64,000 nt of DNA from Botryllus schlosseri (Eukaryota): NCBI GenBank assembly GCA_051294905.1, contig CM119372.1, positions 22,012,001 to 22,076,000 of the forward strand. The letters are read 5' to 3'. Positions 9,482 through 39,699 of this stretch are shown here, piece after piece; positions within the stretch are counted from its first letter, which is position 1; each line of letters begins with the position of its first letter. The notes under the pieces are model-generated. The model was not told where the DNA came from and ran no database searches. It worked only from the letters and a program-made list of their open reading frames with translations. A program made the position numbers and the translations under genes.

Positions 9482-12400
9482 GGATTCAATATGACAGGCC
9501 CAATCGAGATAACAATTGCGTATGTGTCCGAACTCGTTGACCTTTCCAGTTGGGCTTACGCAATCTCTCGAGTTGTAGTATGGATAACTAACCTACGGTA
9601 GGTTGGTTATCTAGTTATAGTCATTTCCATTTCTGCAGACAATTAGTCAGGTCAAGTGCGAACATGAACCGTGTTGAATCTTTGTTCCGTTTGTCTTCAG
9701 GATCGTCTAGGCCAGTGGTTCTCAACCGGGGGTCCGCGGACCCCTAGGGGTCCGCGAAGCAATTTCAGGGGGTCCGCGAGACCTCTAAATTTTTAAAATG
9801 GTTGATAACCTGATTTTTATTTTATTTTTCAATTTGAGAAAGCATGAGGCAGTTTCACACCACAACTGCTAAAACCTCATGACTCATATCATCGTATTAA
9901 TCGTCTGACATGGACTATGGTAGTGTGGAAACTCATTTTCATTGCCAATTTTCCAATAACCTGCTCATACAAACTTATTGCTCTTTAGAGACGTTTTGTA
10001 GGGGTTTGTGGAAAAAATAAAAATATGGAGATAGTAGCGTCAATCAGGGTGACTTCGTAATGTCTACGAATCCTTCTCGATTTGAAGTTGTCAGTCTCAT
10101 CAAGTTAGTGAACAGTCGTTTGAAATTAAAAAAATCAGAAGTATTTCCATAATTTGTCTCAATGCAGGGAACAGCTTCTTGGAGGTACAGAGTTTTAATA
10201 TAAAATTGAATAGTATATTCCTATTGAAATGAACCCGAATATTTTCGGCTGACACTCGTCATTAATCGGACAATGATATACCTGCTCTTAAAGCTCGGCT
10301 ATCACATGTGGCGCATTCTTATTGCGGATGCCCTATCGACAAGGCTGATTTTTTGATGTACAAGGAGTGTTTCGTTGCTATCAAAGCATTACGCTCCAAC
10401 CCTGAAATTCATATCACGAGTTATATTGGTATGCAGCCTTGTCTTGTTAATGTTCAATTATTCATGGTCGAAAATGTTTGCTCGTAAATATATATTTAAC
10501 CCGAACAGAACAAGTCGTTTCATGACAGTCTCTGGTTGGAAAACTTGGATCCATGCTCTGGAGCATAATATTTGTCTATACTTTTAGATTAGGATTTCAC
10601 TTTGACGGTAGAATCTCTCTGCGGGTCGATCAAAATGCCGTCACGGGCCGATTCCGGCCCGCGGTCCGTATGTTGCCCGTCCCTGCGCTAGATGCTGGAC
10701 GTGATATGTTCATTAAATATGTGTTTCTTCATTTTGGTGCCATAAATGTTGCGATCACACCAAAAGTATCGTCGGAAGCGTTATACGTAAATATTGCATT
10801 AGCTTCCATCTATCTTTGCGGAAATGGTTTTCGGCACTCCTCGTTCATATCAAAACGAAAACGCGGATTTTCAAGACACGACCACGTACTTCAAGAAGTA
10901 CAGCAGCAAAATTAGCTTTGAAATAATAAAAGTCCACTAATTTCTACATAAATAGTATGATGTTATCTTCAAGAAAAATCACTATTTTGCTGTTTATCAC
11001 AAGCCTACAGTTCATATTTGCACAAGACAGATGAAGGTTGCACCATAATGGAGCTAAAATTGAGCTAAAACTTTAGGGGGTCCGCGCGGGTCCGTGACGG
11101 TCAAAAGGGGTCCGCGAAGCCAAAAAGGTTGAGAACCACTGGTCTAGGCGCTGTACGAGTTCTTTGAATTTATCCGTATCTGGCAACATGTGTTGACGTC
11201 TGCCTGGTGTTAGGCATTTCAGCTGATCTCTGGTTAGCTCGTAAGATTCTTCTTCGCCGAGTATTGTAAAACCAGGATTGCGTTGTTGTGACCAACCCTC
11301 GTTTTGAAACTCATCTCTGCCTACTGTATTATAAGCCGGGTTGCGTAGTAGCGACGTACCGCCGCGCATAACCTCATTCCTGCCTTCTTGGTAGGTCGGG
11401 TTGCGTTGTTGTATTACACCACGGCGTGGAATCTCGTCTCTACCATCTATATCGTATGCGTGATTATGTCGTGACTCGTCTTGGCATGAAATTTCTTCTC
11501 TACCTGCTGTATTGTGGACGCGATTAGGCGTCGAGCGAACATCGCTGTTGTCCGGACCTAACGATGAGGGTAGACGTACATGTGAACGTCCAGTATCTTC
11601 CAATCTGTCAAGTAACTCCGCTGCTTGCTCAGCCACACGCGATTCGGACAGCTTTAGGTTAGCTTGTAAATCATTTTTTTCTTTCTTATTTCGTTTCAAA
11701 TCCGAACAAACACCGCGATATTCATCTTCCCACCGTGACGCCAGATGTGTTGCCTGGTTCTCGTAATTCTTTGACTGTTGCAACTTTACTCGCATTTGTG
11801 ATAATTCGTTGTGTAATTCTTTAATTCGACCTTCGAGATATTCCGCCCTGTCATCGGCTTCCTGATAATTCTGTGTTTGCTTTCTTTCTTCCTTATGGGC
11901 AATCCACAGCTCATTACGTTCCTTTTCCAAGTCCTTTTGAAATTCATCTATCCTTGTTATTGCTGTCTGCAATTTGTACATTAGGTCTTCTTTTTTGTCT
12001 CTTGTGGAATATAATATGGGGTCATCGTCATAGGGATCTTCCCATTCATTCAATATCTCGTGGTCAATGCCTGGTGTATATCCCGGCGCGCCTCTCTTAC
12101 CAATATTAAGCTGTCTTCCCAATATACGCCTAGTTCTGGTTGGGTATAGCATACGTTCAGGGTTTCTATCCCTCCACTCGGACTGATTTTCTTCATATTC
12201 TTTCCATTCCGGCTCGCCCAGTTCAGGTTCCCCCGAAATTAGCATATTTACATGCCCCCGGTCCATCGAATCCGTTGATGTTCCCCCTGCTTGTTTTTTT
12301 GTAGCGTTGGCTTCGCGGACAATGGGATATTCTAGCTCATTATCATCAGGCGCAGACGGCGCCTGACTTCTGTTATCTCCTTCCATCGATTCTTGGTACG

Positions 12401-13043
12401 ACGGTGGCGTTTTAGGAGTCATACTGAAGCTGGGGTGCGTCCCATGGGTATTTCGAAGAATGCTAGCATGAGCTATTTGTTCACCCATAACCGTAGCAGT
12501 TTCCAATGATCTAGCCAGTTCTTTGGGATCAATACCTTTCAGCCGGCGTTTATGTATTTTCTTCAGTTCATCCAACTCCTTTCGTATTTCAGAGATGGAC
12601 TTGTAAGCCCTGCTTATTTCTTTTTCGACGTGAGGCAATATCTTCCCCTCCTTATTTTGAAGATCAGCGTCCCTTTTTGCCTTCTTAATCAAGTCCGAAT
12701 GTTTTTTAACAGCCTCGTTATAACGATGTTGAGTTATTTTTATCTGTTGTCTTGTATCTTTCAATTTTTCAATGCGATCCACGCTCTTTGCTCGAGTTTT
12801 CGATGGGGTACGACTTCTGCTGAACATGCCCGATCGTGAAGTAGACCTTCCTTGCCGTACAGTATAAACACTGGTAGTTTCATCACCCGAAACAGTGGCC
12901 TCTCCTTCCGACACATGACCTTTGTCAGCAGACTGCTCGCGAGATGTCCTACGAGAGCTACTCAGAGATCGAGTGGTTTTGGAATCTGCAGATCTGGTCC
13001 GTCGCCACAATTTTTTCAACTTAGATTCTGGCCCAGTGTCCAT
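9482..13043 (-). pseudogene. gag: Gag-like structural protein, interrupted by a MITE and truncated at the internal hAT end
   Basis: ATG 22 nt downstream of the PBS; ~630 open codons to 11142; basic Ser/Arg N-terminus, coiled coils, PPSY (12396-12407) and PSAP (12348-12359). Removing the MITE continues the frame QRLD|DPEDKRNKDSTRFMFALDLTNCLQKWK, then stops occur. No capsid motif or zinc knuckle recognised. Confidence 0.75.
9713..11141. mobile_element. hAT/Charlie-like MITE inserted in gag
   Basis: TIRs CAGTGGTTCTCAACC / GGTTGAGAACCACTG; perfect 8-bp TSD GTCTAGGC at 9705-9712 and 11142-11149. Confidence 0.95.
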
Positions 13044-38577: not shown

Positions 38578-39699
38578 GGAGTGTTTTTGTTCCGCACTTC
38601 AAGTCACAGCTCACCGGCAGACCTCTCGTGTCACATACGTTAAAATCACTGTTGTCGGGAGGTTCATGTTACCGTACCATCATTAAGTTACTTGTTTACG
38701 TTGGAAAACGCAATTGTGACGTCATCTTGATAAAAAGTCGCTTGCAGCCCTCGCCCCACCACCCGATATTGTCACGAGCCGCCACTGGCTCACACTATAG
38801 GGTAGTCGATGCAAATTCTGGGGGGGTGCTTGCTATATTAATCTACCTTTGCCCGGACTTACTCACGGGCTATTGTGGAAGCTGATTACATTCAACATAT
38901 TCGCAAACCCCAGAATAAAGGCAGACGCCCCCCCCCCTTCCGTTTGGAACCACTATCTTTGAATAAAGCATTTAAACGGTTTTAACGGTCTCTAGGAATA
39001 TACCGTTCTCCTATAATTGCGATGACAATTAGGCTTATTCAAGTAAATGAAGGTTGTTTTTATTTATATTTCATTGCAATTTTTGCGAGGGTGGTAGTCT
39101 CCATATTAAAATCAATAAATGTGATAGTAAATCGCGCGCAGCGCGAAGAAAAATATCATGCATCGGCATAAATATTCCCAAAATTGTTTTTAAGCTGATT
39201 TACGAAAAAATTATGAACCTACGTCAAGTCTTCAAAATTCCGGACATTTGGCATATTTTAGAAATTCCTCCCGGACGCTAGTTTGAACAGTGAAATTCCG
39301 GACATGTCCGGGAAATTCCGGACGTATGGCAACCCTAACTTAGGGGGCGGCATTTTAAGCGAGAGCCAGGGGCGGCAGGGGTGTTTATAAAGCTCCATGG
39401 TGCGTACCGGCATAAGGCTGATAAACAATCTTGTCAGTAGGACATGAACATGACTTAACGCTGTGCAATTACGCTCCCTGTATTTTCGAGCTCATCATTC
39501 TCCACCCGCTCTACCGATAACTCTGATAATGTGGGTGGGGAATAGTATCTCTATATAGTAATATATGGATTAACCAATATTATTGACAGAATTCATTCAA
39601 ATAATTTGACGACCAGATGCACATAGAAACCAGATTCATATAGCAATCACGCCCTCCCCCAGAAGTTGCATCGATTACCCTGTAGTGTGGGCTCAAAAT

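Follow-up and report, generated by a model that had tools for sequence, protein, structure and literature searches.

The 64,000-nt stretch of Botryllus schlosseri DNA analyzed here (the window; GCA_051294905.1, contig CM119372.1, positions 22,012,001–22,076,000, forward strand) contains one germline copy of a retrovirus-like element with a Ty3/Gypsy-caulimovirus-type reverse transcriptase (RT) and RNase H. As far as its ORFs can be recognized, the element appears to encode no integrase or recombinase of any kind. The explanation we favor, with a probability of roughly 0.55, is that episomal circular or concatemeric DNA of the element has been captured into chromosomes by end-joining. Reverse transcription would be primed by tRNA-Gln, and the resulting DNA would remain unintegrated, either as a circle with one leader or as a head-to-tail concatemer. 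Host end-joining would occasionally seal broken pieces of this DNA, and also strong-stop cDNA, into breaks in the chromosomes, leaving dead, permuted and truncated copies like the one in the window. The observations that carry this explanation are the gene content, the primer-binding site (PBS), the permuted order of every copy, the separate origins of these copies and a single junction pair of the end-joining type.

Gene content and extent of the element

The window element spans positions 11142–38589 and measures 13,997 nt without an insertion described below. In agreement with the initial annotation, the ORF listing placed its genes in one orientation on the minus strand, in the order pol, ORF233, a small transmembrane (TM) ORF, env, a basic ORF and three accessory ORFs, followed by three 91-nt repeats, a 415-nt leader, a PBS for tRNA-Gln and the start of gag. 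The proposed start at 9482 had to be moved to 11142, since 9482–11141 is foreign DNA. The repeat represented by a fragment at 10214–11147 also adjoins an RVT_1 ORF at 3676–4641. Positions 11142 and 38589 are truncation points specific to the window copy and not genome ends, and shared sequence extends beyond them in six other gag ends and two other pol starts. A 2,164-nt interval absent from the window copy contains a CA-like region, a CCHC knuckle and an aspartic protease (LADTGA), and a 640-nt overlap (98.75% identity) between two other copies revealed that gag, CA-like/CCHC, protease and pol are contiguous. Thus, gag is indeed joined to protease-pol, and the earlier suggestion of a complete genome that was opened between these genes does not apply to the window copy, which is truncated and lacks 2.16 kb. 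An in-frame fit of the two window ends was dropped as an argument, because its chance expectation is 1-in-3 and the ends are not joined.

The full gene set is a map deduced from overlapping natural copies, with no sequence being built. This putative circular map, roughly 16.2 kb in size, would run from the leader (host spliced-leader sequence plus R-U5) through PBS(tRNA-Gln), gag (N-terminal domain, CA-like, CCHC), protease, G-patch, RT, RNase H, a Tpt1-like domain, ORF233, env, the basic ORF and zero to three accessory ORFs to the repeats/U3. The 673-aa ORF previously called gag (11142–13043, minus strand, truncated at 11142) is gag in its N-terminal, coiled-coil-rich part alone, and the CA-like, CCHC and protease regions belong to the interval missing from the window. 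The ratio of nonsynonymous to synonymous substitution (dN/dS) between copies was 0.08–0.24 for gag and 0–0.25 for pol.

The 5′ part of pol (36762–38589, minus strand) breaks off at 38589, short of the protease that is present in other copies, and Pfam searches of 36757–38598 identified a G-patch (E 5.9e-13) and RVT_1 (E 5.6e-20). In the 3′ part (22225–23310, minus strand; searched as 22225–23337), RT_RNaseH (E 1.8e-23) was accompanied by Tpt1/KptA (PTS_2-RNA, PF01885; E 1.9e-9). This Tpt1-like domain (RNA 2′-phosphotransferase fold) occupies the C-terminus of pol, where an integrase would be expected; it matched solved Tpt1 structures (E 7e-6) and its conserved motifs could be aligned in a relative. 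No fusion of such a domain to RNase H was found in the literature searched, and the ESM Atlas returned nothing usable for the RNase H-Tpt1 region. The RT-RNase H part matched a caulimovirus-type 'Enzymatic polyprotein' structure (E 2.7e-19) and Ty3 (E 2.6e-18) equally well, and the contigs recovered from IMG/VR by a scan with the pol alignment were limited to a single Gypsy-like one and 11 of retrovirus size, the latter with YMDD RTs at 20–26% identity.

No rve, tyrosine recombinase or DDE domain could be identified by Pfam in 12 ORFs at E<=0.01 or in six small ORFs at E<=5, the gag-pol interval lacking from the window contains only CA-like/NC/PR sequence and no integrase, and rve was also missing from the relatives P0013 and P0014. 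The reported lack of an integrase or tyrosine recombinase was therefore upheld for both the window ORFs and the missing interval, and it is consistent with an absence of self-directed integration.

As previously recognized, pol is interrupted by a 13.4-kb foldback transposon (23311–36761), which is foreign and not part of the retrovirus-like element. Its inverted arms (23313–29368 and 30706–36761) are 6056 nt each and 100% complementary. The insertion is flanked by a 7-bp target duplication (TTTGTGA), the uninterrupted site is present in the copy on contig C3, and a diverged relative of the transposon occurs elsewhere in the genome.

The env ORF (18519–21380, minus strand) predicts a 953-aa glycoprotein-like product with a signal-like segment (residues 3–27), 18 N-X-S/T sequons, a single RSKR at 565–568 and a TM segment around 858–880. 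Its dN/dS between copies was 0.19–0.28 and its identity to the env of sister elements 23%. Word-indexed searches, Pfam at E<=10 and PDB sequences yielded neither a match nor an assignment to the F or gB type, and a single-sequence AlphaFold2 model of the region after the furin site was unusable (mean pLDDT 41.0). ORF233 (21552–22253, minus strand), located where sister elements have a DDE transposase, was intact in three of the five copies holding it, with one stop in each of the other two; its dN/dS was 0.27–0.37 (0.67 against one copy). No family, ESM Atlas match or fold was obtained for it, the single-sequence AlphaFold2 model being unusable (mean pLDDT 30.7). The 108-aa ORF (21230–21556, minus strand), which overlaps the start of env and has a hydrophobic segment at residues 60–83, is a weakly supported gene (dN/dS 0.29–0.79). 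The basic ORF (17512–18222, minus strand; 236 aa, 21% K+R) showed a dN/dS of 0.15–0.21 (0.53 against one copy). The accessory region (14226–15786, minus strand) contains ORFs at 15199–15786, 14674–15108 and 14226–14606, the latter two being paralogues (BLASTP 27% identity, E 1e-14). This region is variable: 13802–15996 is missing in C12, C1a and C1b, and 13821–14652 in C3. No similarity was detected between the accessory ORFs of the window and those of the sister element compared.

Leader, primer-binding site and dispersed units

The PBS (13065–13082, minus strand, read 13082->13065) is complementary at 18/18 positions to the 3′ terminus of a host tRNA-Gln(CTG) gene with CCA added, which confirms the tRNA assigned earlier. 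The sequence before it ends in GTGTAAC and not in CA, again as described. The first 24 nt (13499->13476) of the 415-nt leader unit (13083–13499, minus strand) are identical to the 24-nt spliced-leader exon of the host, and the unit extends to the base adjoining the PBS; in the literature searched, no host spliced-leader sequence at a leader start was found. Given these two limits, the unit is read as R-U5. The three tandem 91-nt repeats upstream (13539–13811, minus strand; repeat family D8) may be enhancer-like. Only one leader and no flanking direct-repeat pair could be found in the window, so that the single regulatory region without paired LTRs stands.

At least 25 dispersed genomic copies of the 415-nt unit were identified, and about 40 dispersed matches lie wholly inside it with shared ends. 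These units start at the first base of the spliced leader and end at the PBS border, which are the limits of minus-strand strong-stop DNA; a shorter (L058) and a longer (L028) fragment have this PBS-side end as well. The units thus resemble strong-stop cDNA more than solo LTRs. When the unit was considered as a solo LTR with target site duplications (TSDs), no boundary pair gave more than 2/7 exact duplications, and the spliced-leader identity changed this reading.

The same units bear on an alternative that we consider unlikely: an ordinary LTR retroelement or endogenous retrovirus might integrate by its LTR ends with an enzyme acting in trans (for example, that of the sister IS1595/Merlin-type elements), the permuted loci being truncated tandem arrays that share LTRs. 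A leader unit with sharp ends and many dispersed copies would fit such an element, as would L058 and L028, in which the PBS-side end of the unit is joined to host DNA. In addition, flanking 9-mers matched at >=8/9 positions in 3/10 dispersed units as compared with 2/90 cross-controls; these matches could be target duplications made by an enzyme, be it in this lineage or in one ancestral to it, and we counted them against end-joining capture. However, any duplication was missing in the other seven of the 10 units, the positions of the three matches were not uniform, and the start of the dispersed unit is the 5′ end of the RNA (the spliced leader) instead of a U3 start. No polypurine tract was seen directly before it, but the polypurine scan does not discriminate: the 19 runs of at least 11 nt that it gave over 12.2 kb compare with 12.8 expected by shuffling. 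The purine run nearest to the leader start at 13499 lies at 16472–16457 and none abuts it; as the unit is R-U5, this start is not that of U3.

Copies, junctions and sister elements

Five multi-gene copies could be identified (the window, C3, C12, C1a and C1b), and all of them are permuted alike, in the order pol-env-leader-PBS-gag. Each starts and ends inside gag-PR-pol at breakpoints of its own. On a scale in which X is the number of nucleotides past the gag end of the window and pol starts at X2165, the copies start at X2165, ~X1509, X931, X2751 and X3449 and end at X0, X313, ~X327, X973 and X1571. The opening site once placed between gag and pol is thus not fixed. The breakpoints cluster in about 3.4 kb of the roughly 16.2-kb map, which is not predicted by simple random breakage and was counted against end-joining capture, as was an older env fragment on C15 with breakpoints outside gag-pol.

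Compared with what LTR-mediated insertion in trans would leave, none of the five copies keeps an outer LTR or a gag-side LTR-host junction, and searches for host DNA joined to leader-PBS-gag gave no match in any of these gag-bearing copies. None of the copies forms an array; their lengths reach about one unit at most, and parts of the unit are missing from four of them. Two flanking LTRs with 4–6-bp target duplications were found in 0/5 copies, and no two-LTR provirus of the window's family was found in the genome. A single junction pair, that of the C12 copy, could be read cleanly, and we counted this small number against end-joining capture. The C12 copy sits in a 159-nt satellite whose phase is 72 at the left junction and 85 at the right one. 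It shows a 12-nt target loss (modulo 159), overlaps of about 4 nt and <=8 nt, and no duplication; such deletion with microhomology argues against LTR-end integration. The C3 locus, which is assembled as a mosaic from four or more fragments lying in both orientations, likewise speaks for end-joining capture.

These findings suggest a circular or concatemeric precursor, which is proposed from the chromosomal copies; that neither a circle nor a concatemer was seen was counted against episomal capture. For the circular, non-integrating interpretation given in the initial annotation, the lack of integrase, the circular permutation of 5/5 copies, the lack of a two-LTR provirus and the C12 deletion with microhomology speak in its favor, whereas its whole genome and fixed opening could not be retained. 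Virions might carry DNA, as those of a pararetrovirus do, or RNA, as those of an integrase-less retrovirus with 1-LTR-type circles would.

Differences between copies were mostly at synonymous sites, with ratios of 0.55–1.2 in a non-coding control against the lower dN/dS of gag, pol and env. Thus, the copies diverged while the genes were functional and represent independent captures from a replicating lineage. An assembly artefact, or segmental duplication of one rearranged locus, seems highly improbable. Mis-assembly can produce structures such as the perfect 6-kb inverted arms of the window and the palindrome found at the C3 locus, but the five loci lie on four contigs with unrelated flanks, dN/dS between copies is far below 1, and the foldback element has its target duplication, empty paralogous site and diverged relative. 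Moreover, contigs of independent runs cover the element, with 28/30 bins in run X12. In RNA run X24, one library of which about 6% was read, depth was zero in most gene bins, which we counted against end-joining capture; run X21 gave three reads on the element.

Close sister elements in the same genome have an IS1595/Merlin-type DDE transposase directly after pol (DDE_Tnp_IS1595, E 7e-15 and 4e-19), and Merlin transposases carry this Pfam domain according to the part of the source available to us (PMC4202319). Dozens of intact sister copies contain the gene and, with 112 matches, intact DDE ORFs are plentiful across the genome, which would suit an LTR element served in trans; that this transposase might act in trans was likewise counted against end-joining capture. 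The gene lies inside the gag-pol-env unit, overlapping the end of pol, and not between short inverted repeats. Some 'ORFs' upstream of one sister DDE gene turned out to be the 159-nt satellite. With regard to integrases in relatives, to which the initial annotation had drawn attention, the window's family has none, and tblastn with the sister DDE proteins gave nothing in six of its loci, whereas the sister elements do have a transposase after pol, which goes part of the way towards the refutation envisaged there.

It might also be supposed that the whole clade uses site-specific circle integration like DIRS or IS circles, the permuted order being the normal integrated form. Many sister copies are recurrently ordered DDE ... 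DDE ... spliced leader-gag-pol with pol last, one of them begins at the DDE gene beside satellite DNA, and 40 kb around one sister element contain a single leader and no LTR pair. We nevertheless regard this as improbable, in that the window's family is without a recombinase, its breakpoints differ in every copy, and cutting gag-PR-pol would kill a functional integrated form.

Relationship to known reverse-transcribing elements

Episomal capture has its closest counterparts in several known systems. First, endogenous caulimovirids likewise have a Ty3/Gypsy-related RT-RNase H, tRNA priming and no integrase, and their chromosomal copies are permuted, truncated and rearranged by illegitimate recombination, the signature of which is seen here in 5/5 permuted copies and one junction pair with a 12-nt deletion and microhomology. 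Unlike caulimovirids, which are non-enveloped plant viruses with a movement protein and a PBS for tRNA-Met, the window's element has env, a tRNA-Gln PBS, a G-patch and a Tpt1-like domain, no movement protein could be matched in its ORFs by Pfam, and its host uses spliced-leader trans-splicing. Second, 1-LTR circles and integrase-independent insertions are by-products in retroviruses; the single leader/LTR joined to PBS-gag has the topology of such a circle, and the C12 junction, with deletion and microhomology, resembles such an insertion, but in the window's family these forms are apparently the sole source of chromosomal copies. Like Metaviridae and Retroviridae, the element has a tRNA PBS directly after U5, whereas its pol is without rve and two flanking LTRs are lacking.

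A broader reading, which we hold only tentatively, is that an animal-type enveloped reverse-transcribing lineage has abandoned integration and persists as episomal circular DNA, as a counterpart of plant pararetroviruses, while a sister lineage swapped its retroviral integrase for a Merlin/IS1595 transposase. The pol of the non-integrating lineage would have a Tpt1-like, NAD-dependent phosphotransferase domain at its end, and the RNA of this lineage would open with the host spliced leader. If so, the host genome would preserve intermediates of replication that were captured as strong-stop DNA, as extended minus strands and as opened circles. To our knowledge, all known animal gag-pol-env retroelements carry an rve integrase, and we know of integration loss solely in plant caulimovirids and, unrelated to them, in hepadnaviruses. 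If a lineage of Gypsy type with Env lacked an integrase, the transition from retrovirus to pararetrovirus would have taken place more than once and become testable; the signs of this seen here are permuted end-joined fragments as sole chromosomal traces and nearest relatives with a different DDE enzyme.

Errantiviruses, the env-carrying metazoan Ty3/Gypsy elements, share the order gag, PR-RT-RH, env, a tRNA PBS and a furin-type Env site, but have an integrase and two LTRs, whereas the window's pol ends in the Tpt1-like domain. According to the part of it available to us, a recent errantivirus survey (eLife 2026, PMC13524379) included only elements with a full-length integrase, so elements like that of the window would be excluded by design, and surveys with such a requirement would generally miss them. 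DIRS/Ngaro elements are similar in their Gypsy-like RT/RH, lack of rve integrase, circular intermediate and permuted logic; the window's element differs in having no tyrosine recombinase and no terminal or internal complementary repeats that could be seen, and in possessing a protease, a PBS and env. Finally, Merlin/IS1595 transposons have the same enzyme domain as the sister elements, the gene for which is absent from the window's family.

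Gene content and protein relatives of the window element

In the window (G000:C2:22012001-22076000 of a 495-Mb eukaryotic assembly), the element occupies the minus strand (38589->11142), and ORF calling gave a co-oriented series of genes. Pfam analysis identified G-patch and RVT_1 domains at 36757-38598 (minus strand; E 5.9e-13 and 5.6e-20, respectively), followed at 22225-23337 (minus strand) by RT_RNaseH and the RNA 2'-phosphotransferase family Tpt1/KptA (PF01885; E 1.8e-23 and 1.9e-9). Located 3' of pol are ORF233, an ORF of 108 aa that includes a hydrophobic segment, an Env-like ORF, a basic ORF (K+R = 21%) and three accessory ORFs, two of which are paralogous (27% identity, E 1e-14). 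Three tandem 91-nt repeats then precede a 415-nt leader unit (13499->13083), the primer-binding site (PBS) and the gag start. The Env-like ORF (953 aa) has a signal-like N-terminus, 18 N-X-S/T sequons, a single RSKR site (residues 565-568), a TM segment at ~858-880 and a tail of ~70 aa. The PBS (13082->13065, minus strand) matches 18 of 18 positions of the complement of the host tRNA-Gln(CTG) 3' end plus CCA; ARAGORN located the tRNA gene on locus L042, and a script confirmed the complementarity. The tRNA 3' 16-mer occurs 50 times in the genome vs 0 for the reversed control. In addition, dense arrays of tRNA-Gln-type 3' ends (~150 nt spacing; G000:C7:23.46-23.48 Mb) resemble tRNA genes clustered in tandem; one of them was confirmed as tRNA-Gln(CTG). 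Integrase, tyrosine recombinase and DDE families had no Pfam match in 12 window ORFs (E<=0.01) and six small ORFs (E<=5). The minus-strand order from pol to gag and the Gln primer-binding site proposed in the initial annotation were both borne out.

Insertions had also been noted, and the one that splits pol is a foldback-type transposon of 13.4 kb (23311-36761), whose arms (6,056 nt each) are complementary at 100% identity and which contains internal 41-nt tandem arrays. It is flanked by a 7-bp target duplication (TTTGTGA), and pol is uninterrupted at the corresponding site of the C3 paralogue. Close to that C3 copy is a relative (79-94% identity; L004-L005, C3:28685951-28699991) that is palindromic and diverged. 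An RVT_1 ORF (3676-4641, E 3.2e-31) lies within 3311-6066; repeats flanking it recur at 10214-11147 and border the truncated gag end, the two sequences having 6 nt in common where they meet. Direct repeats (84% identity) at 9282-9370 and 38585-38673, with similarity running on to ~9600 and ~38885, bracket the whole element plus the 10214-11147 fragment and probably stem from a different repeat family, present here twice.

A search of 1.84 billion representative proteins yielded 183 pol relatives at E<=1e-30. The best, P0013 (37% identity) and P0014 (35%), are RT-RNaseH-Tpt1 proteins without rve, and P0015, P0017 and P0022 contain RT-RH only; long proteins ranking below these were ordinary Gypsy-type polyproteins with rve. 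A word-indexed search gave 11 matches (23-25% identity), nine with PF00665 and all with PF17921. Among PDB sequences, the best match was a caulimovirus-type 'Enzymatic polyprotein' (8r0s, E 2.7e-19), followed by Ty3 (4ol8, E 2.6e-18; 7q5b, E 8.4e-18) and foamy virus RT (~1e-5). Literature searches turned up no description of Gypsy-type pararetrovirus-like elements of animals. Tpt1 structures were matched at 3e-5 by the window element and at 7.7e-9 by a relative, in which the GH(S/T), YH-T and R-Y-(V/I)-H motifs could be aligned with the structures. Five members of the clade have invariant His and Arg residues in common within this domain. A literature search likewise found no description of RT-RH-Tpt1 polyproteins. 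It should be noted that a survey of metazoan env-carrying Ty3/Gypsy elements required a full-length integrase for inclusion (PMC13524379), and that Tpt1, phosphotransferase, transposase and G-patch do not occur in its main text.

Permuted copies and the gag-pol interval

Own-genome searches gave 73 pol, 12 gag and 32 env matches. Four other multi-gene copies were identified, on C3 (28.665-28.679 Mb, 99% identity), C12 (19.132-19.143 Mb) and C1 (C1a, 0.967-0.990 Mb; C1b, 23.951-23.962 Mb), and further fragments lie on C41, C15, C14, C10 and C6. All five multi-gene copies show the order pol-env-leader-PBS-gag with a single internal leader, and none has an uninterrupted gag-PR-pol. On a scale X of nucleotides past the window gag end (11142), with pol beginning at X2165, copies start and end at X2165 and X0 (window), ~X1509 and X1571 (C3), X931 and X313 (C1b), X2751 and X973 (C1a), and X3449 and ~X327 (C12); the C41 fragment ends at ~X325, with no start assigned. 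Each multi-gene copy is a circular permutation, and flanks are unrelated among copies. At the C3 locus, at least four fragments lying in both orientations form a mosaic around a palindrome. On C15, the breakpoints of an older fragment (env-basic, 85-89% identity) differ from those of the other copies. Host DNA joined to leader-PBS-gag was not seen among the own-genome matches. The accessory region is variable: 13802-15996 is missing in C12, C1a and C1b, 13821-14652 is missing in C3, and another variant appeared in contigs of sequencing run X12. Runs X10 and X12, labelled as two other organisms, contained 0.54-0.57 of sampled words; X12 contigs cover 28 of 30 bins of the element with ~1-2% difference, so the family is either common to close species or recently spread.

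The sequence between gag and pol was recovered from these copies. All six other gag ends run past 11142 into one common sequence, which continues the gag frame through a CA-like region and a CCHC knuckle (1,147-aa ORF in L002; zf-CCHC E 0.0015). Two other pol starts run upstream of 38589 into a second common sequence encoding an aspartic protease (LADTGA; weak RVP/Asp_protease_2 matches, E 0.0015-0.0045). Since the two extensions overlap by 640 nt (98.75% identity), gag, CA-like/NC, PR and pol are contiguous in the window family, as the initial annotation had suggested checking; the family map is a set of coordinates and not a joined sequence. There is a 44-nt overlap (-1 direction) between the Gag and PR frames. 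The entire interval of 2,164 nt is absent from the window copy, and it has neither a match to an integrase nor room for one, so that the proposed lack of integrase holds for the window ORFs and this interval alike. Both ends of the window copy are truncations. In substance the initial annotation was right; its idea that the window holds the whole genome fails, 2.16 kb of gag-PR being present in other copies and missing here, as does its left boundary, the element stopping at 11142. Polypurine-like tracts were noted in the gag/protease overlap (L011:2505-2516, L002:3899-3910), ~32 nt upstream of the C3 copy start, and at window 16457-16472, ~3 kb upstream of the leader; both are possible plus-strand primer sites.

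To examine selection, pairwise dN/dS was calculated between the window and each other copy. Values were 0.08-0.24 for gag where compared at full length (0.30 for C1b, in which 43 codons remain), 0-0.25 for pol, 0.19-0.28 for env, 0.15-0.21 for the basic ORF (0.53 vs C1b), 0.27-0.37 for ORF233 (0.67 vs C1b) and 0.29-0.79 for the small TM ORF, vs 0.55-1.2 for a non-coding control read in a frame. These ratios show ORF233 and the basic ORF, like env, to be genes. With dS among copies reaching 0.19, most divergence accumulated under purifying selection before each insertion. The copies are independent captures from a living lineage, and the same ratios argue against duplication of one dead locus.

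One pair of host junctions could be resolved. The C12 copy is embedded in a 159-nt satellite (both flanks: L006-L008, C12:19120636-19132359 and 19143130-19149997), whose phase is 72 where it breaks off on the left and 85 where it begins again on the right. Satellite loss was 12 nt (modulo 159) with no duplication, and element and satellite overlap by ~4 nt and <=8 nt. In this single case the junctions have the signature of end-joining and not of an integrase or transposase. Open frames of the satellite yield spurious weak Pfam matches. We favor, with a probability slightly above one half, an integrase-less, Env-bearing reverse-transcribing element whose only germline traces would be pieces of its unintegrated DNA attached to host sequence by end-joining. 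Such an element could be a DNA-packaging pararetrovirus, an RNA-packaging retrovirus without integrase or a dependent of the DDE-bearing sister family.

The leader unit and a host spliced leader

The leader unit had once been read as an LTR. The opening 24 nt (13499->13476) are identical to the exon in three candidate spliced-leader RNA loci (L063-L065), which have this exon, a GTAAG donor and ~120 nt downstream in common, with unrelated upstream DNA; these candidates matched no Rfam family. The 18-nt core occurs 332 times in the genome vs 0 for the reversed control, and many different sequences follow it. In the RNA run X24, 1,693 reads end at 13499 and continue into a constant 30-mer, which we take to be a SMART-type template-switch oligo in reverse complement; in the other direction, several different ATG-containing sequences were found. 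Base 13499 thus marks an RNA 5' end, the 24-mer is a host trans-spliced leader, and the 415-nt unit is read as R-U5 opening with that leader.

The stretch 13499->13083 has ~40 further genome matches (74-98% identity), all inside its limits with one exception that extends upstream; such loci include L029-L035, L043-L045 and L059-L061. Because the unit spans the RNA 5' end to the PBS border, it corresponds to the template of minus-strand strong-stop DNA, and the dispersed units may be captured strong-stop cDNA. Locus L058 is a 216-nt piece (98% identity) and L028 carries the unit plus upstream internal sequence, the PBS-side end being common to both, as would fit minus strands of which one is partial and the other extended. 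One observation counts against the strong-stop reading, and duplication by an enzyme or of LINE type may have played some part: when 10 complete units were aligned, a 9-mer matched between flanks at >=8 of 9 positions in 3 of 10 units vs 2 of 90 cross-controls. The match positions were not uniform among units. No purine run abuts 13499, the nearest being at 16472-16457.

Sister elements with DDE transposase genes

In the same genome, pol genes with 39-47% identity and open frames spanning ~1,000-1,300 aa number in the dozens. They belong to sister retrovirus-like elements (gag, PR-RT-RH-Tpt1 pol, env), in which one or two ORFs encode a DDE transposase of the IS1595/Merlin type. Merlin transposases bear the DDE_Tnp_IS1595 Pfam domain, as stated in PMC4202319. 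No description of IS1595-bearing retrovirus-like elements was found in the literature. A 40-kb locus (C1:8.87-8.91 Mb; C1:8870001-8910000; L020-L021, L036-L037) begins with paralogous ORFs of 175 and 174 aa, followed by a 350-aa DDE_Tnp_IS1595 protein (E 4e-19) and a 182-aa ORF. Next come the spliced-leader sequence, gag (CCHC) and pol (RVT_1, RNase H, Tpt1). A second DDE_Tnp_IS1595 protein (365 aa, E 6.9e-15) is encoded by an ORF that overlaps the end of pol; env and finally a 1,307-aa env paralogue (L020:1358-5281, minus strand) follow. The sister env and this paralogue are 23% identical across 353 aa (E 2.6e-16), so that two envelope-like genes stand in tandem here. Neither an LTR pair nor a Gln PBS was found in this locus.

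For the sister DDE protein, 112 matches were found in the genome, many of them with an intact frame. By coordinates these are co-oriented with pol genes 2-35 kb apart; this recurring spacing suggests sister units over 25-35 kb. Among the first 100 matches listed, 18 pol loci have the spliced-leader core 4.6-6 kb upstream of their RT. No DDE homologue was found in the window family, and ORF233, which occupies the position of the sister DDE gene, is not similar to the DDE protein, and its relatives are confined to the window family. One sister copy starts at its DDE gene, directly beside the 159-nt satellite and with no pol upstream; a DDE-bearing sister element adjoining this satellite lies at C2:26.52 Mb (L062).
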